Source: an uncultured Gammaproteobacteria bacterium
Lineage (GTDB): Bacteria > Patescibacteriota > Microgenomatia > UBA8517
Assembly: GCA_964429215.1 (NCBI GenBank)
Contig: CAYSAY010000002.1
Location: forward strand, 33,812 to 97,811
Length of the DNA: 64,000 bases
Direction of reading: 5' to 3'
Shown here: positions 13,067-34,387 of the stretch, in pieces
Numbering within the stretch: the first letter of the stretch is position 1
How the letters are laid out: each line of letters opens with the position of its first letter
The notes under the pieces: model-generated
Told to the model about the DNA's origin: nothing
Databases searched by the model: none
The model's input: only the letters and a program-made list of their open reading frames with translations
Translations under genes and position numbers: made by a program

Positions 13067-13747
13067 TGTTTCATTTCCTGCAGGATCGACTGCTTTTACA
13101 TCAAATTTGTTTTCACCTTCTGTGAGTGTAGTTGTAAAGGTAAATGTTCCGTCATCTTTTAAAGAAACAAATCTATCATTTATTGTTAAGTCTGCAGATT
13201 CGTCAACTGTACCTTTTACTGTTAATTGCCTCTGTCCTGGTCCGTAATAGGATGAACCATCTTTAGGACTTTCCACAACAAGTTCTGGCTCAGTATTATC
13301 ATAAATAATTTTGTATGTTTTAGTTTGTGTACTTGAATTACCTGCAGTATCTTTCGCTATAGCATCAATTGAATTTTCTCCTTTATCTAAATTGAATACA
13401 AATGTGAATTGTCCTTCATTATTTGCAACAACTTCACTGACACTATTATTTGATCTTATTGAAATAACTGCTCCATTTTCAGAAATTCCAGTAATTTCTA
13501 GGTTTTCATCTTTAGAGAACTCTGGTATATTTTCAAATTGTGGAGGGGCAGGTGGCGTTGTGTCTGTTATTTCTATTGGTTTATTTGAATCTCCGATATT
13601 ACCTATAAAACCTGCAAATTTAACTAAAGTTGGTAAACCTAAAAATATTAAAAAAACTATAGCAATAATCGATAGTAATACATAGGTAACTGCTCTTCTA
13701 ATATTTCTCTTTTCTTCAACCGAGGCTAATCTAGAATATTTTTTCAT
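13034..13747 (-). CDS. membrane-anchored surface protein with tandem bacterial Ig-like domains
   Basis: N-terminal TM, then beta-rich repeats (TVKGTVDESADLTINDRFV..., GENKFDVKAVDPAGNETS) typical of Big-like folds. Confidence 0.45.
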   Translation of the reverse strand: MKKYSRLASVEEKRNIRRAVTYVLLSIIAIVFLIFLGLPTLVKFAGFIGNIGDSNKPIEITDTTPPAPPQFENIPEFSKDENLEITGISENGAVISIRSNNSVSEVVANNEGQFTFVFNLDKGENSIDAIAKDTAGNSSTQTKTYKIIYDNTEPELVVESPKDGSSYYGPGQRQLTVKGTVDESADLTINDRFVSLKDDGTFTFTTTLTEGENKFDVKAVDPAGNETSTSFIVNFSL

Positions 13748-13760
13748 CGTATATAGTATA

Positions 13761-14606
13761 ATGTATTTTATACCACTTTATATGGATAAATACAAAGCAG
13801 TTTGGGTAAGTCATTCTTCAATTTCAGATTTTTTAGTTTGTCCACGTGCTTATTACCTTCGAAATGTGTATAAAGATCCAAAAACTGGTAATAAAATAAC
13901 TGTAACTTCACCTGCCTTGTCACTTGGCCAGGCTGTTCATGAAGTTGTGGAAAGTCTTTCTGTGTTGCCTGTTGAAGACAGGCTTAAAATATCACTTCTC
14001 AAAAAATTTGATGTTGCCTGGGAGAAAGTATCAGGAAAACTGGGTGGGTTTAAATCAAAAGAGGAGGAAGAGACTTATAAAGAGCGTGGTACAGTAATGC
14101 TTAAAAGAGTAGAAGAACATCCTGGACCTATTTTAAATAAAGCCGTCAAATTGCCTTCTGATTTTATACCTAATTATTATCTCTCTGAGGAAGATGAAAT
14201 AATTCTTTGTGGAAAGATTGACTGGTTGGAATATGTAGAGGCTACTGATTCAGTTCATATTATTGATTTTAAAACTGGTAAAAATGAAGAAGATGGTGAA
14301 TCACTTCAGCTTCCAATTTACTTATTGCTTGCTACAAATTTACAAAGCCGAGCAGTATCAAAGGCATCTTATTGGTATTTGGACAAGTCTGATGATTTGA
14401 TTGAAAAAGAATTACCTAATATCGTTGACAGTAAAGATAAAGTTTTAACTGTTGCTAGACGTATTAAACTTGCAAGGCAACTTAACCATTTTGTTTGTCC
14501 TAAAAATGGTTGTATGAAATGTAGGCCACTTGAAAGAGTTTTAAAAAATGAAGGTGAAAAGGTAGGTACTTCAGATACTAGACAAGATATTTATATTTTG
14601 CCATAA
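13761..14606 (+). CDS. PD-(D/E)XK nuclease, Cas4/RecB-like with Cys cluster
   Basis: GKIDWLE (D) and IIDFKTGK (DxK) core. One N-terminal Cys (VCPRAYY) plus C-terminal CPKNGCMKC, as in Cas4/AddB-type FeS nucleases. Confidence 0.6.
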   Translation: MYFIPLYMDKYKAVWVSHSSISDFLVCPRAYYLRNVYKDPKTGNKITVTSPALSLGQAVHEVVESLSVLPVEDRLKISLLKKFDVAWEKVSGKLGGFKSKEEEETYKERGTVMLKRVEEHPGPILNKAVKLPSDFIPNYYLSEEDEIILCGKIDWLEYVEATDSVHIIDFKTGKNEEDGESLQLPIYLLLATNLQSRAVSKASYWYLDKSDDLIEKELPNIVDSKDKVLTVARRIKLARQLNHFVCPKNGCMKCRPLERVLKNEGEKVGTSDTRQDIYILP

Positions 14607-14610
14607 ATTC

Positions 14611-15114
14611 ATGCAAAAAAAAGTTGTTGTAAACAATATTATGCAAAAAGATTTTGTATACTATTTGACGGAAAAAATTGGTCATAATTTTGATCCAGAT
14701 TTTAAACCAGAATTAACACCACAAGAAATGCTTGCACTCGGAGTTTTTGGTGGTAAATATATGACAGATTGCAAAAATGAATTCCCTGAAGATTAGTATA
14801 AAACTGCTAAATTATGCCATGAAAAACATGATTCAGAATTAAATTTTTTTAAAGTAAATGCTAGTCAGCCACTATCTGTTTGGATTAAAAAAGGATGGAT
14901 AAATGAAGATGATCCAAGAGGTTGGTTTCAGTGGTATTGTAGATATTTTATGGGAAGAAGAACACTTGATGACGAAAGACAAATAAAGAGGTGGAAATCT
15001 TTTAAACGGCATGTATCACAAGTTAAAATAAATTGTAAAAAAGGTGATTTAAGTTGCAGAATTGTACAAAGACAAGCACTACTTCATTGGGCATATGATT
15101 CAAGAGTGATTTAG
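14611..15114 (+). pseudogene. conserved hypothetical protein (GWFQWYCRYFMGRR motif) interrupted by in-frame TAG at 14794-14796
   Basis: The 61 aa ORF continues in the same frame for 105 stop-free codons to TAG at 15112-15114; verified codon by codon. Context FPED-TAG-YKT is compatible with an original Trp codon. Confidence 0.5.
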
Positions 15115-15121
15115 GAAATAT

Positions 15122-16150
15122 ATGATAATCAAAAAATTATTTTTAATTATTTTAATAGTACTAGCGATTTATTTTGTTTATTCACGTTTTTCAAAAGAAG
15201 ATAAAATTATTGATTTAATTAGTCAAAATAATAATATTGAAAAACCTCAAGAAAGTTTTGCATTTGAAGAAATGACAATTCCATATCTTCAAGATAGAAC
15301 GTATGAAAGTAAATTAAATGATTTAAGTGTTTTGTCTGAAAATAGTAATTACACATCTTATTTAACTTCGTACTCATCTGATGACTTAAAAATAAATGGT
15401 CTCCTTACAATTCCTAAAGGAGAAGTGCCTGATGGTGGATTTCCAGCAATTGTTTTTGTTCATGGATATATACCACCTGAAAGTTATAGAACCACTGAAA
15501 AATATACTGCCTATGTTGATTATTTAGCAAGAAATGGTTTTGTTGTGTTTAAAATTGATTTAAGAGGGCATGGAAGTTCTGAAGGCACTCCTGGAGGAGC
15601 ATATTATTCTAGTGATTATGTAATTGATACATTAAATGCATACCCAGCCTTGCAAAATGCAGACTTTGTGAATAAAAATAAAATTGGTTTGTGGGGGCAT
15701 AGTATGGCAGGAAATGTAACTTTTAGGAGTATGGTTGTTAAAAAAGATATACCTGCGGTTGTTATCTGGGGTGGTGCTGGGTTTACCTATTCTGATTTCT
15801 TGGAGTTAGGTATTGGGGATAATAGTTACAGGCCTCCTACTAATAATTCAGAAAGAGCGAGGAAAAGAAAAGAGCTAATGGATAGTTATGGGCAGTTTGA
15901 CCCTAATAGTTGGTTTTGGAAACAAGTTACTCCGATTAATTATGTAGATGGGGTTACAACAAAAATACAACTACACCATGCAACAGATGATGATGTTGTA
16001 AATATTGAATATAGTAGAAACTTGAAGAATATTCTTTCAGAAAAAAATTTTGATTTAGAATTATTTGAATATCCAAACGGAGGTCATAACATTTCAGGCG
16101 CATCATTTTCCAAAGCAATGCAACAGACAGTTGAGTTATTTAAAAAGTGA
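15122..16150 (+). CDS. alpha/beta hydrolase (S9 prolyl-oligopeptidase/dienelactone-hydrolase-like), membrane anchored
   Basis: N-terminal TM; VFVHGY..., DLRGHGSSEG, nucleophile elbow GHSMAG. Confidence 0.6.
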   Translation: MIIKKLFLIILIVLAIYFVYSRFSKEDKIIDLISQNNNIEKPQESFAFEEMTIPYLQDRTYESKLNDLSVLSENSNYTSYLTSYSSDDLKINGLLTIPKGEVPDGGFPAIVFVHGYIPPESYRTTEKYTAYVDYLARNGFVVFKIDLRGHGSSEGTPGGAYYSSDYVIDTLNAYPALQNADFVNKNKIGLWGHSMAGNVTFRSMVVKKDIPAVVIWGGAGFTYSDFLELGIGDNSYRPPTNNSERARKRKELMDSYGQFDPNSWFWKQVTPINYVDGVTTKIQLHHATDDDVVNIEYSRNLKNILSEKNFDLELFEYPNGGHNISGASFSKAMQQTVELFKK

Positions 16151-16218
16151 ACTATAATCGCAATATAGCAATTCCGATTTTAGAATTTGCTTCTGCTCAC
16201 AAAAAATATAAATAAAAT

Positions 16219-16533
16219 ATGACAATTGAAGATAGGTTACGCGAGATAAGGGGATTAGCTTCACCAAGAAAAATTAATGCGGTTATTCACCCGGTTGAAT
16301 CAGATGCTAACACAATATTCAGTTCTTTACCTGACGATGTAAAAGCAAGATTAGATAGAGGGTCTGGTAAATTAGAAAGAAAAAAAAGATTTCTTAAAAA
16401 TTTGCAATCATTAGTTGAAGGTGGTTTTTCAATATCTCATTTAGTTCAAATGGATGACGAATGTGTAGATAATAAAGGTAGAATTAAAGAAGATAGGCTT
16501 AGAGATATAATCGCTGGCAAACATGACGATTAA
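16219..16533 (+). CDS. hypothetical protein
   Basis: 104 aa, charged, no motif. Confidence 0.35.
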   Translation: MTIEDRLREIRGLASPRKINAVIHPVESDANTIFSSLPDDVKARLDRGSGKLERKKRFLKNLQSLVEGGFSISHLVQMDDECVDNKGRIKEDRLRDIIAGKHDD

Positions 16534-17483
16534 TTTAAATATCTTTTAATTTTTAAATCTTCAAGTAAACTAATTTCAATTTTTAATTTTTCTTTAAAAC
16601 TAAATATTGCTTCATTTTCACCAAATTTATCAAATTCTAATCTTGCCGGGATGTTATCCTTTATCATTTTTGGGAAATCTCCTAATCTATCTCCTGTTAA
16701 AATTAAATGAATTCCTGCATATGCGCCCATTGAAGATAATCTTTTTATTGCATCCTCAATTTCTACACTGTATAGGTTGAAAACTGTACCTATGTAAATA
16801 ATTACAGGAAATTTTTGAGATTCATTTTTATTCAGTATTTCAATTCTTCTATCTATTTCACGAGATAGCCATCTTAGTGCAGATAATGATTTGTCAGTTT
16901 CGTTAATTATTGGAGCAAGAAGATGGGGAATATTATTAAATTTACTAAGATTGTTTGTTGCGTCGTCGATGATTAGTCTGACATCTTCTAAAGTAAACTT
17001 AGATAATAAAAATAATAAATATGTTTTTAGGAATTCATATTTTTTACTGATAATATTACCTGTAACTATTAAATTACCAATTTTACTAAAATCTGTGTTT
17101 AGATACGGTATATCAAGTGGATTGTTTAGAGATTTGACCTCGTCTGGCAAGAAATCAGCAATAATTGGATTATATTTTTTAGTTGGATCAATAAGTTCTT
17201 CTTTTTTCTCAATAATTAACATTTCACTATTCTTTTCCTTAAATTCCTTAAAAGATTTAATTAGTACCTCTCTTGGTCTACTACTACCATCAGAAGGAGT
17301 AAGTACTCCTGTGCTTTGTAATTGATCTATAAGTCTTGCGGCTCTTGCGTATCCGATCGAAAGTCTTCTTTGAAGTAGTGAAGCAGAAGCCCTATCGTAT
17401 TGAATACATGTCTTTACTGCTTCTTCTAATAAATTGTCTGGATCTACTGAAATTCCGGGAACTGATGAATATATATCTATCAT
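16530..17483 (-). CDS. FtsK-like protein with N-terminal gamma (KOPS-binding wHTH) domain and degenerate motor domain (Walker A/B lost)
   Basis: N-terminus DNLLEEAVKTCIQYDRASASLLQRRLSIGYARAARLIDQLQSTGVL matches FtsK gamma. Downstream LEDVRLIID..IPHLLAPI...ALRWLSREIDRR and AGIHLILTGDRLGDFPKMIKDNIPARLEF match the FtsK motor. Walker A is TGNIISKK and the Walker B position reads IIYIGTV instead of DE. Confidence 0.55.
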   Translation of the reverse strand: MIDIYSSVPGISVDPDNLLEEAVKTCIQYDRASASLLQRRLSIGYARAARLIDQLQSTGVLTPSDGSSRPREVLIKSFKEFKEKNSEMLIIEKKEELIDPTKKYNPIIADFLPDEVKSLNNPLDIPYLNTDFSKIGNLIVTGNIISKKYEFLKTYLLFLLSKFTLEDVRLIIDDATNNLSKFNNIPHLLAPIINETDKSLSALRWLSREIDRRIEILNKNESQKFPVIIYIGTVFNLYSVEIEDAIKRLSSMGAYAGIHLILTGDRLGDFPKMIKDNIPARLEFDKFGENEAIFSFKEKLKIEISLLEDLKIKRYLN

Positions 17484-17565
17484 AATTTTAATATAGTCCT
17501 AAAAAAATATATTTGCAAGAGTAGGGGAGTGGAAGGCATAAATTAAATTTGATATACTATAGTAT

Positions 17566-17817
17566 ATGGAAAAAAGAAAATTTGAAGAAGTTGGTTTAAA
17601 TGTTGCTACTAATCATAGAGAGGCTTCTTCTGAGGAAATTCTTGTGGCAATGGCCGTAGCAGGTCGTGCTATTAGCCCTAAAGAATTAGCAGCAATGTCA
17701 GGATATCCACTAACGACCGTAAAAAAGTGTTTAAATATTTTGAAAAGAGAAGCTTTAGTTGAAAAACACAGGGATGGACTGAGATTTTATTATTCACTGA
17801 GAGGAAAGCAAAAATAA
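17566..17817 (+). CDS. small winged-helix DNA-binding protein
   Basis: 83 aa; ISPKELAAMSGYPLTTVKKCLNILKREALVEK..GLRFYY is typical of wHTH. Confidence 0.4.
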   Translation: MEKRKFEEVGLNVATNHREASSEEILVAMAVAGRAISPKELAAMSGYPLTTVKKCLNILKREALVEKHRDGLRFYYSLRGKQK

Positions 17818-17820
17818 TTT

Positions 17821-18123
17821 ATGACTGAAGATCTAAGAATGATAGCGTGTGTACAAGGCAATTTAAATACACAATTGCCAGAAGCAGCTTTTCGCATTTC
17901 ATATGAATCAGGAGGTATACCGATTACTCCGTGTGCTGGATGCCAATTTAAAACTCATTTAGAAAGAATTGCTAAGATTGCAGAAGAAATAGCCAGAGCT
18001 AAAACGATAGGAGTTGCGTTAAAACAACATGAGAAACATGCAGTACTAGTTTTTGAACATAAAGAAAGACTGCATGTTAGATGTACCTGTCGTTGTTGTA
18101 CTGAAGTAGTTAAGGAAGAGTAG
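17821..18123 (+). CDS. Cys-rich hypothetical protein
   Basis: 100 aa; CAGCQFKTH ... RCTCRCCTE clusters suggest metal binding. Confidence 0.35.
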   Translation: MTEDLRMIACVQGNLNTQLPEAAFRISYESGGIPITPCAGCQFKTHLERIAKIAEEIARAKTIGVALKQHEKHAVLVFEHKERLHVRCTCRCCTEVVKEE

Positions 18124-18355
18124 AATTTAAAAAATTTAATCAAATACTGTAAAATACTCCATGGGAATAGAAAGCGAACGAGTTGAATATCAGTTAATTT
18201 AAAACCTGTATATAAAACTACCCCACAAGGGTGGGATTGTAGAAGCTGTATTGATTGAAAAGCCGAAAGTAAATTCAATTTCAATTGAAGAATTACTACT
18301 GAATTAGTTACTTCTGTTTGGAAATAGGTAAGCAAAAGTAAAATTTCATCTAAAT

Positions 18356-18697
18356 ATGGTGATGTACTATAATACCCAAATGCCAGAAATATTAAGATTG
18401 CCAGATTCAGGGCGCACAAATGAATTTTATGCTGATTTTACGTTGAAAGACGATGATGAATTTGTAGTGGTAACAGAAGGTTGGATATTTGCACCACATA
18501 GAGGTAATGAAATGATGGATATAATACAGTCCAAGCTCTCGTTATTAGCTCGTGATAGAAATAAGACCTTCATACATTTATATGAAGCCTCAACTATTGA
18601 AGGTAAAAAATTAGTTCAGCGAAATTCAAGATATAGCTATGTCGGAAGATCACATGCAGGTTATTCAGTTTATAAAGCTGTTTATGAACCAGAGTAA
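18356..18697 (+). CDS. hypothetical protein
   Basis: 113 aa ORF, no motif. Confidence 0.35.
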   Translation: MVMYYNTQMPEILRLPDSGRTNEFYADFTLKDDDEFVVVTEGWIFAPHRGNEMMDIIQSKLSLLARDRNKTFIHLYEASTIEGKKLVQRNSRYSYVGRSHAGYSVYKAVYEPE

Positions 18698-18709
18698 CAT
18701 TTTAGAACT

Positions 18710-18943
18710 ATGACAAACACAATTTTTACAAATAAGGCACTTTCAAAAATGAAAGATGTTGGACTTTCTGAATCCTTAGTGCTTGATGCTTTTAACTCCG
18801 GAATAGTTGAAAAGTGGTCTACTGGAGGTGGGTATAATAGTGTTAAAAAATATAATGGCTACGAAATTGGAGTTGCTTGGCTTCGAGACGAAAAAGGTGC
18901 ATACATAATCACTTCAGTTTGGAAAAGAGATAATAGGAGATAA
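18710..18943 (+). CDS. hypothetical protein
   Basis: 77 aa ORF. Confidence 0.3.
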   Translation: MTNTIFTNKALSKMKDVGLSESLVLDAFNSGIVEKWSTGGGYNSVKKYNGYEIGVAWLRDEKGAYIITSVWKRDNRR

Positions 18944-19003
18944 TCTTATTTGCAATTTATATAGTTGATCTTTCTTCTGTTTTGATCAAAGATCAGAATA
19001 GGT

Positions 19004-19390
19004 ATGAAAATTAGTCGTGACTCGGCAATTCAAATTTTAAAATATTGTGATAAACACAAAAAGTTTAATTTCCCATTCTTTGTAATGTGCAAAGAATATT
19101 CCCCAGAAGATGATGATTTTGTAGAAATTGGACCTGATGAATGGCAAGCAATTGAAGATGATGACACTTATCAAACATTTGAACTGTGGGAAAAACAGCC
19201 TCAATCAGATACAGAGATAATTTTAGATAGATTAAATATCTTAATTAAAAATTACAAAAAGTATTTAAAAAATGAAGCTTCAGATGACGAAAATTCAGAA
19301 TTGTCTGATTTGCATCAGTTCATCTCCGGCAAACTTGATGCATATGTAGAATGTAGAGATATAGTTTTAGAAATTAGTAAAGTTGTATAA
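19004..19390 (+). CDS. acidic hypothetical protein
   Basis: 128 aa, Asp/Glu rich. Confidence 0.35.
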   Translation: MKISRDSAIQILKYCDKHKKFNFPFFVMCKEYSPEDDDFVEIGPDEWQAIEDDDTYQTFELWEKQPQSDTEIILDRLNILIKNYKKYLKNEASDDENSELSDLHQFISGKLDAYVECRDIVLEISKVV

Positions 19391-19400
19391 TAGTTAAAAA

Positions 19401-20168
19401 ATGGATTTAAATTTTGATACAGCCTTGTTAAGTAATTATGTTAGTAATTCTCAAAAAGCAAGAATATTGACTGAAAAATGGACGTTAAATAATATTTATT
19501 GTCCTAGTTGTGGTGACTTTGTTAATGAATATGCAAACAATGCGCCCGTTGCTGATTTTTATTGCTCGAAATGTAATGAAGATTTTGAACTAAAATCGAA
19601 GTCTGGAAAATTTAACGCTTCAATTTCTGCAGGTGCATATTCTGAAATGATTAAAAGAATTAGTTCTAGAGAAAAGCCAAATTTTTTCTTTCTAGAGTAT
19701 GTTGCTAAGTTATTAAATGTGAATGATTTTTTCGTTGTCCCTAAACATTTTATTATCAAAGAAATTATCGAAGAGAGGAAACCTCTAAAAGAAACTGCAA
19801 AAAGAGCAGGTTGGGTAGGCTCAAATATAAAGTTCTCAAAAATACCAAAAGCAGGTCAGATATATTATGTAGAAAAAGGAATAGAAATTCCAAAACCAAT
19901 CGTATTGGAAAAGTGGCAAAAAACTGTATTTTTAAAGAAAGTTGATGATGTTAACGCAAAAGGTTGGATTTTGGACATTATGAATTGTATTGATTCTCTC
20001 AACAAAAAAGATTTTACTTTGCAAAATATATATGCTTTTGAAAACGATTTGTCTGTTATCCATCCTGAAAATAAAAACATAAAGCCTAAAATTAGACAGC
20101 AGTTACAATTCTTAAGAGACAAAGGCTATCTAGAATTTATCGAGGCTGGAAAATATCGACTGAGATAG
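19401..20168 (+). CDS. DpnI-like methylation-dependent restriction endonuclease (PD-(D/E)XK N-domain plus C-terminal winged helix)
   Basis: NSQKARILTEKW, CPSCG...NNAPVADFYCSKCNEDFELKSK, PNFFFLEY, and C-terminal IRQQLQFLRDKGYLEFIEAGKYRL closely resemble my recollection of the DpnI family. Confidence 0.6.
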   Translation: MDLNFDTALLSNYVSNSQKARILTEKWTLNNIYCPSCGDFVNEYANNAPVADFYCSKCNEDFELKSKSGKFNASISAGAYSEMIKRISSREKPNFFFLEYVAKLLNVNDFFVVPKHFIIKEIIEERKPLKETAKRAGWVGSNIKFSKIPKAGQIYYVEKGIEIPKPIVLEKWQKTVFLKKVDDVNAKGWILDIMNCIDSLNKKDFTLQNIYAFENDLSVIHPENKNIKPKIRQQLQFLRDKGYLEFIEAGKYRLR

Positions 20169-20203
20169 TTGACTTTCTTTCAAATTCGATCAATGATCAG
20201 AAT

Positions 20204-20407
20204 ATGGATGAAAAAATCAAAAAATTTCCAAAACATTCTTGTCAATTTTGTGGTTGTGAGCGTAAGTTAGTTGAAACAATTATAGATGATGAGTTTTTTT
20301 GGGATAAAGATGAACAAACATATCAGCCTGATAAGTTTACTGACATTTTTGAACATACTGGCAATAATCGCTGTGTACAGTGTGAAAAAGAATGGTCGGG
20401 TACGTGA
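20204..20407 (+). CDS. small zinc-ribbon protein
   Basis: 67 aa with CQFCGC ... CVQC pairs. Confidence 0.35.
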   Translation: MDEKIKKFPKHSCQFCGCERKLVETIIDDEFFWDKDEQTYQPDKFTDIFEHTGNNRCVQCEKEWSGT

Positions 20408-20441
20408 ATCTTCCGACTAGAAGGGTAATTGATCGCCAGAA

Positions 20442-21061
20442 GTGGTTAGGAATTTAATTTTAAGATATTCAAATGAAGGCGATAATTTGTTAGATCCAAT
20501 GATAGGTGGTGGTACAACTGCTATTGAAGCAAGGATTTTGAATAGGAATATAATAAGTATAGACGTTAATGCAAAAGCTGTTGAGAGAACTATTAAGTGC
20601 CTTCAATTTGATGCCCTAAATTCATCTGTACAAAGTGTGATGGTCGGAGATGCAAGAAACTTAAAAATAGTAAAGGACAAAAGTATTGATTTTGTGTTAA
20701 CTCATCCTCCATATGTAGACATTATAAAATATAGTGATGGCAAATTAGAAAATGATTTGTCTAATATTCATGAGATTGATAAATTCATAGTAGAAATTAC
20801 AAAGTAGCTAAAGAGTTATTTCGTGTACTAAAAAATGGAAAATATTGTGCTATTTTAATAGGCGATACTAGACGAAATAAAATGTATCAACCATTGGCTT
20901 TTAAAGTTATGGATGCATTTTTGAAAGTTGGATTTAAATTAAAAGAAGATATTATTAAAAAACAATTTAATTGTACTGCTACTGGTTTTTGGGTTAAAAA
21001 GTCTAAGGATTTAAATTTTTTGTTAATAATGCATGAACACCTATTTGTATTTCAGAAATAA
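20442..21061 (+). pseudogene. SAM-dependent N6/N4 amino-methyltransferase (DNA MTase-like), disrupted by a -1 frameshift near 20800
   Basis: Frame A: LLDPMIGGGTTAIEA (motif I), IISIDVN, IDFVLTHPPY (motif IV), then TAG at 20805. Frame C from 20801 continues KVAKELFRVLKNGKYCAILIGD...LLIMHEHLFVFQK to TAA at 21059-21061. The shift sits in the run acaaag. Confidence 0.55.
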
Positions 21062-21082
21062 ATTAATTTATAAAATCTTCAG

Positions 21083-21556
21083 GTGTATAATCGAGCCATG
21101 AGGAAAGTGGATGGGAATACTTTAAATGCCAGGATTGGGAGGCATGTTGAAGTGGAGATTGATATTAGAGAGAATTTGGCTTGGAATTTGATGATGCAGG
21201 TGGTTAGATTTTTTGTAGTTCCTGTTAAACTTTTTAATGAATACTTTACAAAATTTAAACTTTCCAAAACTTCAAGATTTTATAATTTAGTTAATTATCC
21301 ATTGTCTGATTATTTATTTAAAAAAACTATTGAAGCAGTAGTTATATTAGGACTATTTAGCATAGGATTATATGCATTTGAATTTGAAGAATTTCAGTTT
21401 ATTGTTGCAATGGTTTTAATTGCTTTAATATTATTTTTGCCGGCATTTTTAAAAATTTTGTTTTTGGCTTTTGTAATGCTTGTTGAGTTGATTGTGAGAA
21501 TTATTAAATCAATCTTTTTTACAGTTAAATCATTGGTTACTGAAAGGACTTATTAA
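21083..21556 (+). CDS. hypothetical membrane protein
   Basis: 157 aa, C-terminal hydrophobic helices; start uncertain. Confidence 0.3.
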   Translation: MYNRAMRKVDGNTLNARIGRHVEVEIDIRENLAWNLMMQVVRFFVVPVKLFNEYFTKFKLSKTSRFYNLVNYPLSDYLFKKTIEAVVILGLFSIGLYAFEFEEFQFIVAMVLIALILFLPAFLKILFLAFVMLVELIVRIIKSIFFTVKSLVTERTY

Positions 21557-21570
21557 ATATAAATTTGAAG

Positions 21571-21622
21571 TTTGTATACATGTTTTAAAAGATGTATACA
21601 AAGTACACCAGTTTGTATACAT
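21571..21622. promoter_or_regulatory. three copies of 11-nt motif TTTGTATACAT (two direct at 21571 and 21612, one inverted at 21592) about 20-21 nt apart, followed by TATATAAT -10-like box
   Basis: Read directly; all three centre on GTATAC. The array lies in the 85 nt upstream of the DUF3800 gene start at 21642. Confidence 0.4.
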
Positions 21623-21641
21623 TAGGGTATATAATTAATAT

Positions 21642-22226
21642 ATGGATAACAACCTGTTATTTATTGATGAATCTGGTGACCATAGCTTAAATAATATTAA
21701 TTCTGACTTTCCAATATTTGCATTATTAGGATTAATAATTGAAGAATCAAGTTATAAAATACTAATTAATGAAGTTAATGACTTTAAAAATAAATATTTT
21801 AAGACAACTAGTGTCGTATTACATAGTAGAGAAATAAGAAAATGCGAAGGCGTGTTTGCAATCCTTTTTGACTTAAAAGTTAAGGAGGAATTTTATAAGG
21901 ATTTAAATTCAATTATTACAAATACAAACTTTATGCTTGTTTCTTCTGCAATACTAACTTTAGCAAAGCGTTATAACGAGCTTTTATATAAAGGTAGTGG
22001 TGTTGTCTCTTCAGGAAGATTTGTAAATAGATATAATCAGGAATTGTTATTTAAACGCAAAAGCCAAAATGATATAGGATTACAATTAGCTGATTTGTGT
22101 GCATACCCAATAGCAAGACATGTGTTGTATCCAGAAGAGCCCTATCCGGCGTTTGAAATAATTAGGAGTAAAATTCGAAACAATCGTGGAAAAGTTGAAG
22201 GTTTTGGAATTAAGATATTTCCTTAA
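21642..22226 (+). CDS. DUF3800 family protein
   Basis: N-terminal LLFIDESGD and C-terminal GLQLADLCAYPIAR are characteristic of DUF3800. Confidence 0.55.
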   Translation: MDNNLLFIDESGDHSLNNINSDFPIFALLGLIIEESSYKILINEVNDFKNKYFKTTSVVLHSREIRKCEGVFAILFDLKVKEEFYKDLNSIITNTNFMLVSSAILTLAKRYNELLYKGSGVVSSGRFVNRYNQELLFKRKSQNDIGLQLADLCAYPIARHVLYPEEPYPAFEIIRSKIRNNRGKVEGFGIKIFP

Positions 22227-22290
22227 AAAAACAAAAAGCCTTCTTTCGAAGACCTTTTGCCGATCGGGGACACCCCGGTCCATTCTTATT
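22227..22290. terminator. bidirectional terminator region between convergent genes
   Basis: A stem in aaaaagccuucuuucgaagaccuuuug and the GC hairpin cggggacaccccg. On the - strand the hairpins are followed by a U-run (ttttgttttttt). Confidence 0.45.
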
Positions 22291-22328
22291 ATATACCACA
22301 TCTGTCAAGTTTAGCAAACTAGATCAAA

Positions 22329-23702
22329 TTATATCAATTCCTTTAATTTTTCCCAGATTTTGACCATGGCGAGGGTGTCTAGGCCACAGTATTCTAATAA
22401 TTCTTTTGCTTTTGATTTGTCTGTTGTGTGGATTAACTCCCACCAAACTAGCATTGCTTGATCGCCTTTGTTTACAGCCAACTTTTTATATGAGAGGTCT
22501 GGAACCATTACAGGTAAAACATTTTTGATTGACCAACTGCCTAGGAAGTCTGGATGAATGTAGAGTTCTTTGTTAATGAAATCTGCTAGGTCTATCATTC
22601 TACTATTTACATCATCCAAAAATTCTTTGTATTCTGGATATAATCCTGCAATGTCTTTATTTCTTTCAAATTCAAAAGTTTTATTCCAGACTACTACTGA
22701 AGCAGCATCTTTAATGTCCTCTTTTAGTTTTTTAATTAAATTTACTGATGGGTCACCTAATTCAGTTTCTAAATATTCTTGATGCATCATTGTTCCGTCA
22801 CTCTCTACTATGTGCAATGAATACTGGAAAACCATATGTTGATATGGCTTGTAGCCTTTATAAATTGGAATTGCTAGCGGGTAAGTTTCATAATCTAAAA
22901 AGTAAATTGGAAAAACAAAAGTATTTAAAAAGTCTGATAATCCTGTTGCATTTAAATATGGAGTATTTGATTTAATTATATTTTTGATTAACGTTTGTTT
23001 AGGTGAAAGTGGAAAACTGTCTGGGATATCTTTGATTTCTAAAATCCTTGAATCTTTTAACTCTCTTTTCTTCTGTGGGTGGAGGGCTGGGATATGGTAA
23101 ATTGATTTTTCTGGTAAATTTGGGTGACAAAGTGAGATACATGGGCAGGACTTAGGATCTAAACATGTTTCTACATGGTCTGGAGTGTCTTTACCTGCCA
23201 CTTTTTCTGCTTCCATCATTTTCTCCTGTATTTCTATGGTTAGTTCCATTACTTCATTTGTAACGTCGTTTATTTGGAAGAGTTCTTTGATATTTAGTGA
23301 ATCTGATAATATATATTCTTTGTTTAAATTAACTACATATACTTTATTTATTTTAATTGTTTTACTTTTTACAATGTATTGGAAAGTGGCATCATATAAA
23401 TGTTCTTTTTCTACTTTGGTGGTACTTTTAACTTCATATAAATCGTAGGTATCATCAGTATTTTTAATTAATGCATCTGACCTTGATTCAAAACCATTTG
23501 AAATAAAGGTTTCTTGCCAAATTGCATGGGGGAGAAGTTTGTGGGCTAGAGTTTCAACTTCATAACCTTGCTTCATTAAATGTTGGTCATATACTGATGG
23601 AGTAAGGTTATTTAATTTGTTGTGCTTATCTGCCCAGAGATGCATAGGGGACTTTAAAAAAAGTAGAAAGTCTGATTTTGCGATCATTTTAATATTATAC
23701 AA
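22329..23702 (-). CDS. DUF2779-like predicted nuclease (PD-(D/E)XK-like N-terminus, RNase H-like C-terminus)
   Basis: MIAKSDFLLFLKSPMHLWADKH start, DLYEVKS, CxC pair, and FLDYETY resembling a DEDD-like exonuclease motif. Confidence 0.5.
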   Translation of the reverse strand: MYNIKMIAKSDFLLFLKSPMHLWADKHNKLNNLTPSVYDQHLMKQGYEVETLAHKLLPHAIWQETFISNGFESRSDALIKNTDDTYDLYEVKSTTKVEKEHLYDATFQYIVKSKTIKINKVYVVNLNKEYILSDSLNIKELFQINDVTNEVMELTIEIQEKMMEAEKVAGKDTPDHVETCLDPKSCPCISLCHPNLPEKSIYHIPALHPQKKRELKDSRILEIKDIPDSFPLSPKQTLIKNIIKSNTPYLNATGLSDFLNTFVFPIYFLDYETYPLAIPIYKGYKPYQHMVFQYSLHIVESDGTMMHQEYLETELGDPSVNLIKKLKEDIKDAASVVVWNKTFEFERNKDIAGLYPEYKEFLDDVNSRMIDLADFINKELYIHPDFLGSWSIKNVLPVMVPDLSYKKLAVNKGDQAMLVWWELIHTTDKSKAKELLEYCGLDTLAMVKIWEKLKELI

Positions 23703-23745
23703 CTTTTAATTAATTCTATTGACTTCGGTTTGAGTTTGGGTTAAA

Positions 23746-24770
23746 TTGAATAGAATGACCATTCCTAAAGAAATGATAATTTACAAAACTCCAAATGGTG
23801 ATGTAAAAGTTGAAATTCTATTAAGAGGCGAAAATATCTGGCTTACTCAAAAGACAATATCTAAATTATTTGATTGTTCTATAGATAATGTATCGCTTCA
23901 TTTAAAAAACATTTTTAAGGAAGGAGAACTGTCAGAGAATTCAGTTGTCGAGGATTACTCGATAACTGCTGAAGATGGAAAAAGTTACAAAACAAAACAT
24001 TATAACTTTGATGCTGTCATAGCTGTTGGTTATAGAATTAATTCAATAAAAGCTACACAGTTTAGAATTTGGGCAACCAAAATAATAAAAGAATATATAA
24101 TTAAAGGCTTTGTCATGGACGATGAGAGGTTGAAAGATCCAGACTATATTTTTGGCAAAGATTATTTTGAGGAACAACTGGCAAGAGTTAGGAATATTCG
24201 TTCAAGTGAACGAAGAATGTATCAAAAAATTACTGATATTTATTCAGAATGTAGCGCTGATTACGATTCAGATAGTGATATTACTAAAAAGTTTTTTGCT
24301 ACAGTTCAAAATAAACTACATTTTGCAATTACAGTCAAACAGCAGCTGAAATAATATGTAAAAGAGTGGACAGTAGAAAAAAAGATTTAGGATTAACTAC
24401 TTGGAAAAATGGGCCAGTGGGCAGTATTCGAGAAACTGATGTAATTATAGCTAAAAATTATTTAAATGAAAGCGAACTAGATCAATTGAATAGAATAGTT
24501 ACAATGTATTTAGATTATGCAGAATTCCAAGCAAAAAACAGAGTTGCTATGTATATGAAAGACTGGATTGAAAAATTAGATGCATTTCTTCAATTTAATG
24601 AAAAAAACATACTTTTTGATTATGGGAAAGTGAGTAATAAAGTTGCAGAAAAGTTGGCAATTAAAGAATATAAAAAGTATAAGATTGCAAAAGATAGAAA
24701 TTATTTTTCAGATTTTGATAATGTTGTTAAAAAATATCTAAATTATCAAAAAAATGAAGTTAAAATTTAA
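23746..24770 (+). pseudogene. RhuM family protein, split by a 1-nt deletion in an A-run near 24337-24339
   Basis: ORF1 23746..24354 (WLTQKTISKLFDCSIDNVSLHLKNIF..., FRIWATKIIKEY) is the RhuM N-half. ORF2 24366..24770 (LGLTTWKNGPV..VIIAKNYLNE) is the C-half in another frame. The other frame across the junction reads TAAEIICKRVDSRKKDLG, which fits the family. Confidence 0.6.
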
Positions 24771-25959
24771 AAGAATATATAGTGTTGTTAAAATAAACAT
24801 TAAGAAATTTATATTTCCTTTGTGGCTTTTACCCTTAAAACTTATTACTTATCCTGTTTATTTTTCATTTTATTTAACTTGGAAAATTATATCTTGGCCT
24901 TTTCGTAAGTGGTCTAACTTTTTTAAGTGGATATTCTGGAGTTTCACGATTATTTATTTCCTTTTTTCTTTACTAGTCATTTTTGATTACTTAAGTCGAG
25001 AATATGGAAGTTTTGATAAAATGTTTTGTGGTACTGGAGTTAAGACTAAACTTCAAAATTCAGTAGTTAGAATAATTGGTGGAGAAGGCGAAGGATCTGG
25101 ATTTTTCATAACTCCTACTGAAGTTGTAACAAATTTCCATGTAATTGCTGATGAACCTAGTCCTAAAGTAGTATTTCCTGATGGGACATTTCAAACGCCT
25201 AAAAAGATTGTGGGTGATAAAAAGATGGATATTGCTGTTTTGACATTGGATAAAGAGTTCCCTGAAATGGTTTATGAATTACCTGAAAAACTTGGTCTTG
25301 TCGCTGATGAACCACTTCTTTCAGCAGGTTTTCCACTTGGGTCTGAAGTTGTTGGCGGTGTTTCTATTGTAAAAGGTAATTTTATAGAATTTAGAAGAAG
25401 TAGAAAAGATGTAGTAAGTTACATTCAAACTAGTTTAAGTTTAGTCCCAGGAATGAGTGGTGGGCCTCTAGTAGACCAATGCGGTCAAGTTGTGGGGGTT
25501 AACACAATGAGCCTTGCTGGAATATCATTTTTTATAACTGCCTCTGACGTTAAAGCAAGTCTTCCTAACCTTACTGATCAAGAAATAGTTAAAATTAATG
25601 TTGATCCCAAAAAATCTCCTGATCAAGCTGTGTATGCGTTTTATACATATTTGAAAGCACGTAACATGGAAAAGGGATATAACTTACTTAGTGCAAAGTA
25701 CTTAGAAAAGACAAATTATACAGAGTGGACAAATAGATTTACTGATATATTGGATGTAAACATAGTTTTGACGGAACTTGTTGAAGACAGTGATACTCAA
25801 GTATTTGTAAAATTTGGAACTACTAACTGGGTGGATGGAGAAACTGAATATCATTTCTATGAAGGTACTTGGGATACTGTAAATGAGGAGGGGACTTATA
25901 AAATGGATAAAAGTAAGATAAAAGAAGTAACTGAACCTAACTGGGAGTGGTTTTATTAA
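24754..25959 (+). CDS. membrane-anchored trypsin-like serine protease (S1 family) with C-terminal uncharacterised domain
   Basis: N-terminal TM helices; catalytic triad contexts TNFHVIA, DIAVLTL, GMSGGPL. Confidence 0.65.
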   Translation: MKLKFKRIYSVVKINIKKFIFPLWLLPLKLITYPVYFSFYLTWKIISWPFRKWSNFFKWIFWSFTIIYFLFSLLVIFDYLSREYGSFDKMFCGTGVKTKLQNSVVRIIGGEGEGSGFFITPTEVVTNFHVIADEPSPKVVFPDGTFQTPKKIVGDKKMDIAVLTLDKEFPEMVYELPEKLGLVADEPLLSAGFPLGSEVVGGVSIVKGNFIEFRRSRKDVVSYIQTSLSLVPGMSGGPLVDQCGQVVGVNTMSLAGISFFITASDVKASLPNLTDQEIVKINVDPKKSPDQAVYAFYTYLKARNMEKGYNLLSAKYLEKTNYTEWTNRFTDILDVNIVLTELVEDSDTQVFVKFGTTNWVDGETEYHFYEGTWDTVNEEGTYKMDKSKIKEVTEPNWEWFY

Positions 25960-27101
25960 TTAATTTTTCTGCTCTCCAATATTTTGTCAATTTGTGTTGC
26001 ACGACTTGCAACCATTAAATCGGCAGCAATTTTTTCTATTCCATAATCTTTTTTAATTCCAATTTTACCATCTGATAAAAAGTGTTTTAATACTACCATT
26101 AATTGAACAATTCTTGGATCAAATGAACCGCAGAGCGCTGCAATGTCTAGATCGTGATAAAAAACTCCAGCTGCTGCATATGAGTCTAAATGTTTGAGAA
26201 TTAGTGGAAGCTTTTTTTTGTAGTCATGTGCAAACAATTCTTTGTCAGGGACATCGTCTAATACCCATCTTGCATTTAACCTGGGAGAGAAAGGGTCTTT
26301 GATACCTGTTAAGAAATCATTATTTTCAGCTCTTACTCTTGCTATTTCGTCGGTATTTTTTACGTCATTATATTCGAGAGTTTGGTGATTGTTTCGTGCA
26401 CGTAGTTTTAGCATGACTGTAGCATTCCATAACCCCTCAGCAATGTTTCCTTTACTCATAATTATTGAAAAAGTTAAAAACTTAGATAAATTGACTCCTT
26501 CAGCTCCTTTATTTTTTTCAACCCAGTCCCAAAGTGGTTTGACTTGTTGGTTATAGAGATTCGCGATAGTTTCATTTGATGAATCAGTATCTTGTAGTAT
26601 TGCTTCAATGTTATTTAAAATTGATGATCCTGGGTTAACCTCTAATAAATGTTCTGAACCTTTTATATTTTCTTGGCTGAATTCAATTTGTTTACTATTT
26701 CTACTACTATCAACTAACCTAATTAAAATATCGTTAAGGTCATTCATTTCAAATGAACTTAATGCATTTTCTATTTCTTGAGGACTTTTTAGAGAAGCTA
26801 AATTAAGTAAATCAATCGCGGCACCTTTGCCAATTTTTGAAATATTTAATATATCTTCAAATTCATCAAGACCTATATAATTTTCTGGTTTGTCGTAAAA
26901 TGCTAGTGGTTGATCGTTTGTAGCTGCCCATCTGTCATGTCCATTAATTGCGTCTAATAGTAATTCATCTGTGAATTGAAATTCAGGGTTACTTTCAGGA
27001 AATTTTAAACCAGATAAATTGTTTGGTATGTCTTCCTTATCAATCAGATAATTGCGTACGCTCTCAAGAGTTGTTTCTGACAAAATTATCTGAAATTTCA
27101 T
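25956..27101 (-). CDS. hypothetical protein
   Basis: 381 aa ORF with no motif I can name. Confidence 0.35.
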   Translation of the reverse strand: MKFQIILSETTLESVRNYLIDKEDIPNNLSGLKFPESNPEFQFTDELLLDAINGHDRWAATNDQPLAFYDKPENYIGLDEFEDILNISKIGKGAAIDLLNLASLKSPQEIENALSSFEMNDLNDILIRLVDSSRNSKQIEFSQENIKGSEHLLEVNPGSSILNNIEAILQDTDSSNETIANLYNQQVKPLWDWVEKNKGAEGVNLSKFLTFSIIMSKGNIAEGLWNATVMLKLRARNNHQTLEYNDVKNTDEIARVRAENNDFLTGIKDPFSPRLNARWVLDDVPDKELFAHDYKKKLPLILKHLDSYAAAGVFYHDLDIAALCGSFDPRIVQLMVVLKHFLSDGKIGIKKDYGIEKIAADLMVASRATQIDKILESRKIN

Positions 27102-34125: not shown

Positions 34126-34387
34126 GGGGTCGTAGCTCAATTGGTTAGAGCGCTTCCCTGTCGATTTGTGGCAGCTCTTTCTAGCAATATTAAGATGTTA
34201 AATCAGGCTAATTCGGGGAAACCTTTAAAATGGTAATCCCGAGCTAAATCACCGATTAAATCGGTGTAAATGTGTAGAGACTATATACCTGACAACCCTA
34301 GTGGTTGATGAGATAGTCCAAGCTTTAAGGAAACTTAAAGATCGTTGCACGGAAGAGGTTGCGAGTTCGAGTCTCGTCGATCCCGCC
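34126..34387 (+). tRNA. tRNA-Asp (GUC) interrupted by a ~186 nt group I intron (34162-34347) in the anticodon loop
   Basis: Exons: GGGGUCG UA GCUC AAUUGGUUA GAGC G CUUCC CUGU | CAC GGAAG AGGUU GCGAG UUCGAGU CUCGU CGAUCCC G CC. The intron follows U and ends in G. Inside are AAUUCGGGGAAACCU and GUGUAGAGACUAUA, like the J3/4-P4 and P7 elements of small IC3 tRNA introns. A candidate IGS GUGG can pair with exon CUGU. Confidence 0.7.

Follow-up and report, generated by a model that had tools for sequence, protein, structure and literature searches.

Why does a gene for an endonuclease of the DpnI family lie just upstream of a broken methyltransferase gene in a bacterium of the candidate phyla radiation (CPR)? 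The two genes occupy positions 19401 to 21061 of a 64,000-nucleotide stretch of contig CAYSAY010000002.1 (GenBank assembly GCA_964429215.1), hereafter the window. A sequence-only reading of this DNA had offered two answers: either inactivation of the methyltransferase was selected for, as a resident adenine methylase would be incompatible with a methyl-dependent nuclease, or one restriction-modification cassette was replaced by another, as in DpnI/DpnII switching. We consider it probable that a DpnI-type gene replaced the core of a three-gene DpnII-type operon, and that the broken methylase is the leftover end of that operon. We use M2 as the label for the 249-amino-acid second methyltransferase of such operons and M2' for truncated copies of M2 beside DpnI. 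The features on which the question turns are the following.

19401..20168, plus strand: intact DpnI-family endonuclease gene (type IIM, Gm6ATC-dependent by family), 255 amino acids, identified with Pfam, PDB and PADLOC
20204..20407, plus strand: Zn-ribbon-like open reading frame (ORF), 67 amino acids, CxxC...CxxC, directly after DpnI and a common DpnI companion
20412..21061, plus strand: M2 pseudogene, approximately codons 34-249 of the intact gene, identified by blastn and from the reconstructed protein
20418..20420, plus strand: in-frame TAG in place of the first Trp of the conserved SDWRGNW, from frame translations compared with homologues
20430..20432, plus strand: in-frame TGA in place of the second Trp of SDWRGNW, from the same comparison
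20801..20804, plus strand: frameshift site, an A4 run reduced to A3, from comparison with the sister locus L001

By homology, the 255-residue ORF is an unambiguous relative of DpnI, as the sequence-only reading had supposed. The protein matches the Pfam families DpnI at 1.7e-70 and DpnI_C at 2.8e-33 (PF06044 and PF17726), the latter over residues 186-253, which correspond to a C-terminal winged-helix domain. It aligns with R.DpnI (PDB 4esj) over residues 1-253, that is, over its full length, with an E value of 4.3e-79, and the PADLOC model mREase_II for type II methyl-directed restriction enzymes scores it at 1.3e-96. In the DpnI structure, the catalytic residues are Asp53, Glu64 and Lys66, and guanine and methyl readout involves Gln18, Asn48, Arg126, Leu129, Arg135, Trp138 and Gly140 (PMC4117772). 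The corresponding catalytic residues D52, E63 and K65 of the window protein form a PD-(D/E)XK pattern, and the readout and methyl-cleft positions Q18, N47 (DpnI N48), R126, L129, R135, W138 and G140 are likewise kept, as is the Cys4 zinc site of the catalytic domain (CxxC...CxxC; C34, C37, C55 and C58). All of these positions are invariant in 19 CPR homologues. Given that the catalytic, readout and zinc residues have all been retained, it is likely that the window enzyme depends on methylation. Its resemblance to R.DpnI (PDB 4esj, 4kyw) thus extends over the full length at an identity of about 50-55%, judged by eye and not computed, and includes both the PD-(D/E)XK catalytic domain with its Cys4 site and the winged-helix domain; unlike R.DpnI, the CPR protein is known here from its sequence alone.

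The methyltransferase, in contrast to the endonuclease, is a multiply disabled pseudogene. A -1 frameshift had been predicted near 20800, and one A is indeed lost there from the A4 run at 20801-20804 (GAA ATT ACA AAG TAG in the window versus GAA ATT ACA AAA GTA in the intact sister L001), identically in two assemblies. The damage had been underestimated, as two Trp codons have also become stop codons and the first ~30 codons of M2 (MK.LHPE.F.LECTSVW.FPRRGNWATH) are gone. The 3' end of the Zn ORF occupies their place and marks the cassette/M2 junction; in related loci its stop codon overlaps the H-K codons of M2. Besides the two stops, the 10 junction-proximal M2 codons carry four more changes. 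The remnant reads in frame 0 up to a stop at 20805-20807 and then in frame 2 up to 21061. A working methylase requires an uninterrupted full-length frame, which the window M2 lacks through truncation, two stops and a frameshift.

The remnant is nevertheless close to functional genes. By blastn it is 88-89% identical to the intact M2 of L001 and L088, with the match starting at M2 codon ~34. When the two frames are joined, the resulting 209-residue protein has more than 4,400 protein matches, the best of which are 244-250 amino acids long and 92-94% identical; identity to P0001-P0006 falls in the same 92-94% range. Its ratio of non-synonymous to synonymous divergence (dN/dS) relative to the L001 gene is 0.05, which argues that the lesions are recent. 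The simplest reading is that the frameshift and nonsense codons arose recently on a gene that had already been decapitated, and these point lesions look like later decay that was presumably neutral. An alternative genetic code in which TGA or TAG is a sense codon was considered and rejected, since long standard-code ORFs fill the window and both codons would need reassignment.

Motif I (DPMIGGGTT) precedes motif IV (THPPY) in the window M2, as had been noted. This order was thought to be atypical, but it is the norm throughout a family of more than 4,400 homologues, which the 249-position PADLOC model MTase_II spans from end to end; within that family, the His that opens motif IV is invariant. 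The order reflects a circular permutation, as query residues 63-157 align with residues 18-113 of TTHA0409 (PDB 2zie) and query residues 3-45 align with residues 223-265 of the same chain. M2 shares with the beta-class N6/N4 methyltransferases (Pfam PF01555; TTHA0409 2zie, M.MboIIA, DpnA) the motif I pattern xDPxxGxGTT, a motif IV of the type (D/S/H)PPY and a helix before motif I. It differs from them in its linear order of I then IV, which amounts to a circularly permuted, gamma-like or Trm11-like topology, in its THPPY version of motif IV, and in being very short (249 amino acids), with no obvious separate target-recognition domain. From the operon context and the MTase_II match, we infer that M2 methylates the adenine of GATC.

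We then compared the locus with those of sister genomes, in which the same flanking genes, overall 70-79% identical in nucleotide sequence to the window, enclose a variable slot.

16530..17483, minus strand: FtsK-gamma-domain gene, left border of the slot, in a flank common to L001, L085 and L088 (70-78% nucleotide identity)
19004..19390, plus strand: p128, an acidic, DpnI-linked ORF of 128 amino acids with tblastn homologues beside DpnI
24754..25959, plus strand: Trypsin_2 protease gene, right border of the slot, in a flank common to L001, L085 and L088 (74-75% nucleotide identity)
Slot in L088/L089: D12 methylase (318 amino acids), DpnII-family nuclease (PF04556, 5.8e-91, 285 amino acids), M2 (250 amino acids) and an AAA ATPase
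Slot in L001: RhuM, a 119-amino-acid ORF, D12 methylase, a DUF6996/DUF6997 protein (PADLOC REase_II, 1.4e-33) and M2 (249 amino acids)
Slot in L085: a p128-like ORF, DpnI (83% identical) and one small ORF

Between flanks common to all, the slot is thus of the DpnI type in the window and in L085, and of the DpnII type in L001, L088 and L089. Among PDB entries, DpnM (2dpm) matches the L001 D12 methylase best, at 4e-70, and this methylase also matches TIGR00571 dam at 8e-87; its gene is about 89% identical in nucleotide sequence to the L088 dam gene. The intact M2 proteins of the sister slots are 92-94% identical to the window remnant. The comparison with the DpnI/DpnII organisation that had been suggested therefore turned up either-or cassettes between the same flanking genes, and it strongly supports cassette replacement akin to DpnI/DpnII switching. 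L089 and L095, both from run SRR33452760, place DpnII-type and DpnI-type loci of related CPR populations in one metagenome sample. Genes for AAA_15/AAA_21 ATPases adjoin GATC cassettes in several genomes (L088 6357-8114, L004 6911-8350, L176 1981-3420), which supports the view that the slot is a defence island; the L088 ATPase resembles AriA/PtuA/GajA in PADLOC, and the L004 and L176 genes belong to the same Pfam ATPase families.

The three-gene arrangement of the sister slots recurs widely. A scan of metagenome contigs yielded 80 intact M2 loci, 63 with a full upstream flank and 17 with a short one. A dam gene lies upstream of M2 in 61 of the 63, and the gene between the two in these 61 loci encodes a DUF6996/7 nuclease (26), DpnII (22) or a protein of another nuclease family or other gene (13); M2 stands alone in only 3 full-flank loci, and the short-flank loci show the same genes where these are visible. 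As dam and nuclease genes precede it across these loci, M2 is, by genomic context, the third gene of a DpnII-like GATC operon whose middle nuclease gene is interchangeable. At least five unrelated nuclease families occupy this middle position in L096-L175, namely DpnII (PF04556), DUF6996/7, a MutH-like protein of 236 amino acids, a ~205-amino-acid protein and a ~176-amino-acid PDDEXK_11-like protein. Some of these loci also carry an ORF of 565-616 amino acids, in which a motif suggests DUF262 (not scanned), or a separate family of ORFs of 531-546 amino acids.

Given these operons, we asked what surrounds DpnI genes elsewhere. A DpnI profile search returned 80 GTDB species representatives, almost all of them Patescibacteria, and with other loci about 90 were examined using tblastn. 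Within about 5 kilobases (kb) of DpnI, none of the ~90 contains dam or M2 in full length, and none contains a DpnII-type nuclease. The proposed incompatibility of a methylase with a methyl-dependent nuclease is therefore right in principle, and it bears on the replacement event. What many of these loci do contain is the truncated ends of the operon. A truncated dam lies directly 5' of DpnI in L004, L007, L010, L044, L060, L090, L091 and L094; it ends after ...SFTSYT or after ...LYS, and the conserved C-terminal segment is always gone. A truncated M2 lies directly 3' of DpnI in about 16 of the 80 GTDB loci, ranging from near-complete (from codon 13-26 on) to 20-codon stubs. At least 8 loci other than the window keep an uninterrupted truncated M2 frame beside DpnI, and DpnI is intact in 7 of these. 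The window, L004, L090, L091 and L094 share one right junction, which lies at M2 codon ~31-35. L176 (dam, DpnII and M2, the last being P0085) and L004 (DpnI, Zn ORF and M2') are 93.6% identical in nucleotide sequence over a stretch that starts at M2 codon ~33 and takes in the downstream AAA gene. Likewise, L176 and L091 are 89% identical in the 3' part of dam and 91% identical in M2, and the central ~1.04 kb between them is unrelated.

Several of these sequences suggest that the exchange has occurred more than once and within the methylase genes. The M2' copies are polyphyletic among intact M2. Those of group A (the L004/L090/L091/L094 type) are 92.6-99.5% identical at the amino acid level to the intact P0085/P0101, most of them at 96% or above. 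L007 and L010 have one left junction in common and DpnI genes that are ~88% identical, yet the truncated dam of L007 is closer to an intact dam (88.9% identity) than to the truncated dam of L010 (73.8%). In the L090/L091/L094 trio, synonymous divergence (dS) is ~2 for DpnI versus 0.5-1.1 for the flanking methylase fragments. The window M2 differs from those of its sisters by a dS of 0.55-0.64, and the flanking chromosomal genes do so by 1.3-1.7. In the L001-L088 pair, M2 dS is similar to flank dS, indicating that M2 is not intrinsically slow at synonymous sites. Since the M2' copies are polyphyletic, junctions are held in common, the arms have a lower dS and the arms match intact genes, exchange by homologous recombination with crossovers inside the methylase genes is the most likely route.

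On these grounds we propose the following history. The ancestral slot would have held a DpnII-type GATC operon composed of a DpnM-like alpha-class adenine methylase, a nuclease for unmethylated GATC, and M2. A cassette of p128, DpnI and the small Zn-ribbon ORF, which now fills the slot, would have replaced the nuclease gene and the 5' ~30 codons of M2 and, in other genomes, the 3' end of dam as well. In a single event the nuclease would be lost, both methylases disabled and an enzyme that cuts only methylated GATC installed; these specificities of the cassette and operon enzymes are those predicted from their families and context. DpnI acts poorly on hemimethylated DNA, which would make such a one-step exchange survivable. 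The broken M2 would be the right-hand recombination arm, a scar that acquired its two nonsense codons and 1-nucleotide deletion after the swap. The body of the window M2 would derive recently from a functional, intact gene, and the far more decayed junction-proximal stretch would have come with the cassette. DpnI would now restrict incoming Dam-methylated DNA and would need the host GATC sites to be unmethylated.

Five points weigh against this history or limit it. In some DpnI loci the frame of the truncated M2 is still open, as is the one that overlaps the Zn ORF, despite 15-25% nucleotide divergence, and the truncated methylase could still be in use there. No dam remnant is detectable 5' of DpnI in the window, where the right arm alone survives. 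The methyl dependence of the window DpnI is predicted from its conserved residues. The AlphaFold model of M2 is mediocre, with a predicted local distance difference test score (pLDDT) of 67 overall and below 50 for the N-terminal 38 residues, and a Foldseek search with it returned the RNA methylase Trm11 at the top, along with generic class I methylases. For assigning the M2 substrate the structure was therefore uninformative, the model being weak and resembling Trm11-type RNA methylases as much as DNA methylases. Finally, the window island is rearranged relative to its sisters, with three kinds of cargo between M2 and the protease gene, so that its history involves more than one event.

21642-22226, plus strand: DUF3800 gene, island cargo identified with Pfam, not present in the sister slots
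22329-23702, minus strand: DUF2779/RNase_H_2 gene, island cargo identified with Pfam, not present in the sister slots
23746-24354 and 24366-24770, plus strand: split RhuM-family gene (PADLOC candidate defence system PDC-S05), a second pseudogene in the island

The RhuM gene is split by a 1-nucleotide deletion near 24333 (ACAG-TCAAACA, where ACAGGTCAAACA is expected). One of its two ORFs matches the N-terminal part of the Pfam RhuM model and the other the C-terminal part, and an intact homologue of 339 amino acids in L001 also matches PDC-S05.

The companion ORFs of DpnI vary among genomes. In 12 loci the Zn ORF separates DpnI from M2', in 14 a p128 homologue does so, and in 6 the intervening gene encodes a small nucleotidyltransferase-like domain. 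The Zn ORF follows DpnI in 12 of the 80 GTDB loci and also in L004, and its family comprises 57 clusters of stand-alone proteins of 63-79 amino acids. The idea that it is a frameshifted N-terminal domain of M2 was unsupported, as all 57 homologous clusters are stand-alone with no in-frame fusion. Homologues of p128 adjoin DpnI in about 17 loci by tblastn (for example L023 5810-6220 and L085 6610-6990), 3' of DpnI in 14 GTDB loci and 5' of it in the window, L085-L087 and L095. For p128, Pfam and PADLOC gave no match, and neither p128 nor the Zn ORF has a Pfam match of any kind, the DpnD/PcfM family included; p128 may be a DpnI accessory or regulator. The ~100-residue Pol-beta-type nucleotidyltransferase-like domain follows DpnI in L009 (1967-2980), L010 (5716-6771), L005, L006, L015 and L029; the L009 and L010 versions form in-frame fusions with M2, which begins there at about codon 20.

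The +1 frame across the Zn ORF, which is that of M2, contains no stops where a full M2' follows (L004 6027-6239, L007 5795-5998, L016 4318-4521, L091 1816-2025) and 2-5 stops where M2' is absent (L008, L014, L022, L031, L055, L057); the third frame contains 6-14. Gene callers report 'long' M2 proteins of 276-301 amino acids with a poorly conserved N-terminal extension because this frame is open. We considered the open frame as proof that M2' is expressed and set it aside as suggestive, since it would be expected of a young relic just as much as of a selected gene. In L004, near 5585, it is DpnI that is split (121 and 137 amino acids, at a T8 run) beside an uninterrupted M2', the reverse of the window; this split could be real decay or a homopolymer error.

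The region around the cassette is AT-rich, with about 30% GC. A promoter and terminator scan of 17400-21800 found nothing above shuffled controls, and GATC counts in the window (166 observed versus 176 expected) gave no signal of avoidance. Pattern scans of IMG/VR with the DpnI and M2 profiles, for phage carriage, returned no relatives. Elsewhere in the window, a tRNA-Asp(GUC) gene at 34126-34387 on the plus strand has its anticodon loop interrupted by a 186-nucleotide group I intron at 34162-34347 (Rfam RF00028, 88.5 bits); ARAGORN makes no tRNA-Asp call on the raw sequence and finds a canonical 76-nucleotide tRNA-Asp after in silico splicing.

The alternative that fares best goes beyond the proposed history in seeing the CPR DpnI cassette as a selfish, self-targeting element. 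The truncated ends of dam and M2 would serve as homology arms that aim the cassette at DpnII-type operons, one recombination would turn a GATC-methylating cell into one that restricts methyl-GATC, and the arms would be kept fresh through repeated exchange with functional methylase genes. In a bolder variant, M2' could still be active. Translated from the frame that overlaps the Zn ORF, or made as a fusion with the nucleotidyltransferase, it would cooperate with DpnI, for example by marking single-stranded invaders for it. We regard the selfish cassette and its bolder variant, taken together, as a tentative idea that could be correct and is more probably not.

A related but weaker case can be made that, in many CPR genomes, the truncated methylases work together with DpnI and the Zn ORF as one module, of which the window would hold a decayed copy; M2' might, for example, act only on single-stranded DNA or on targets other than GATC, or mark invading single-stranded DNA for DpnI. 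Among L090, L091 and L094, all three genes have a dN/dS of 0.02-0.12 and no stops at 15-25% nucleotide divergence, stops are absent from the M2 frame across the Zn ORF if M2' is intact and number 2-5 if it is gone, and L009 and L010 keep their in-frame nucleotidyltransferase-M2 fusion at ~70-77% nucleotide identity. Gonococci, too, have a DpnIIB-like methylase after drg. However, between the same genome pairs the dS of the arms (0.5-1.1) is 2-4 times below that of DpnI (~2), and arms are up to 99.5% identical at the amino acid level to intact M2, so that recent recombination with functional genes explains the low dN/dS. The truncated dam lacks its conserved C-terminal segment, and protein-level conservation is missing from the N-terminal extension of M2'. 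Recombination with functional genes, both recent and repeated, explains most of the good preservation of the truncated genes, and M2' may retain a residual function beside DpnI; as an account of the locus, we find the working module unlikely.

Still less likely, in our judgement, is the other answer of the sequence-only reading, in which a resident, functional M2 made the DNA sensitive to DpnI and the frameshift and nonsense mutations were positively selected. None of the DpnI loci examined keeps a complete dam or a complete M2, as this would predict, and three disabling lesions against ~2.8% non-synonymous divergence from intact M2 exceed the neutral prediction, though not significantly, the numbers being too small for a test of whether the excess is a sign of selection. 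However, the cassette junction had already cost M2 its own start and the first ~30 codons, and the uninterrupted truncated M2 of the other loci persists beside an intact DpnI in L007, L009, L010, L016, L090, L091 and L094. Two of the three lesions lie within the 10 junction-proximal codons together with the four other changes, as would be expected of a donor segment that was older and had decayed. We reject as very improbable the view that the methyltransferase is intact in the organism and the lesions are sequencing or assembly artefacts: the frameshift does lie in a short A run in a metagenome assembly, but two lesions are base substitutions that create stops, the loss of the N-terminal codons is structural, the long housekeeping ORFs of the window are unbroken, and the megahit source contig from the European Nucleotide Archive (L002; ERZ27247837 k141_273057, 242 kb; identical to window 13401-26168) and an independent Logan assembly of ERR3094302 (L003; identical to window 13401-20898) agree with the window at 100% across all three lesions.

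Replacement of an operon core by a DpnI cassette has clear parallels. In Streptococcus pneumoniae, complementary DpnI and DpnII cassettes have long been known (Lacks et al. 1986, reviewed in PMC3812788). As in that species, a single CPR locus holds either a DpnI gene with one or more small accessory ORFs or a three-gene DpnII-type system, the latter consisting of a DpnM-like methylase, a second methylase and a nuclease for unmethylated GATC, a description that the L088 slot fits, and the two states are mutually exclusive (in CPR genomes, within ~5 kb of DpnI). The CPR system differs in its host, CPR/Patescibacteria, in its accessory genes p128 and the Zn ORF, and in its gene order of M1-R-M2 rather than dpnM-dpnA-dpnB. 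Its M2 is a circularly permuted 249-amino-acid methylase and not DpnA, and its nuclease slot has been filled by at least five unrelated families. In CPR genomes the breakpoints fall within both methylase genes, truncated copies of which remain, whereas pneumococcal exchange proceeds via flanking chromosomal genes.

In Neisseria, drg is inserted within dam, which is truncated, and in gonococci a DpnIIB-like or truncated methylase follows (PMC4269198, PMC6789123). The neisserial drg/NmeBII systems (Cantalupo 2001; PMC516771; PMC4269198; PMC6789123) thus resemble the CPR loci in having a DpnI-family gene at the dam locus with a truncated dam and, in gonococci, a DpnIIB-like or truncated methylase next to it, and in that strains have either dam or drg. 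They differ in that an orphan dam was replaced in Neisseria versus a complete restriction-modification operon in CPR genomes, in having neither Zn ORF nor p128, and in drawing their second methylase from a different family.

These comparisons carry the classic polymorphism, in which a cell either methylates GATC or restricts methylated GATC, beyond pneumococci and Neisseria into the candidate phyla radiation. Here the switch has left a directly visible molecular scar, a methylase gene that was cut at the cassette junction and then began to decay, and for annotation this means that the broken methylase should be treated as a pseudogene remnant and not as a partner of DpnI. The intact operons suggest that two conserved methylase genes frame a hot-swappable nuclease slot, which can hold DpnII, DUF6996/7, MutH-like or other nucleases, or DpnI. 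Recombination inside the methylase genes appears to be a simple route by which populations can flip their GATC epigenetic state, and with it their barriers to gene flow and phage.

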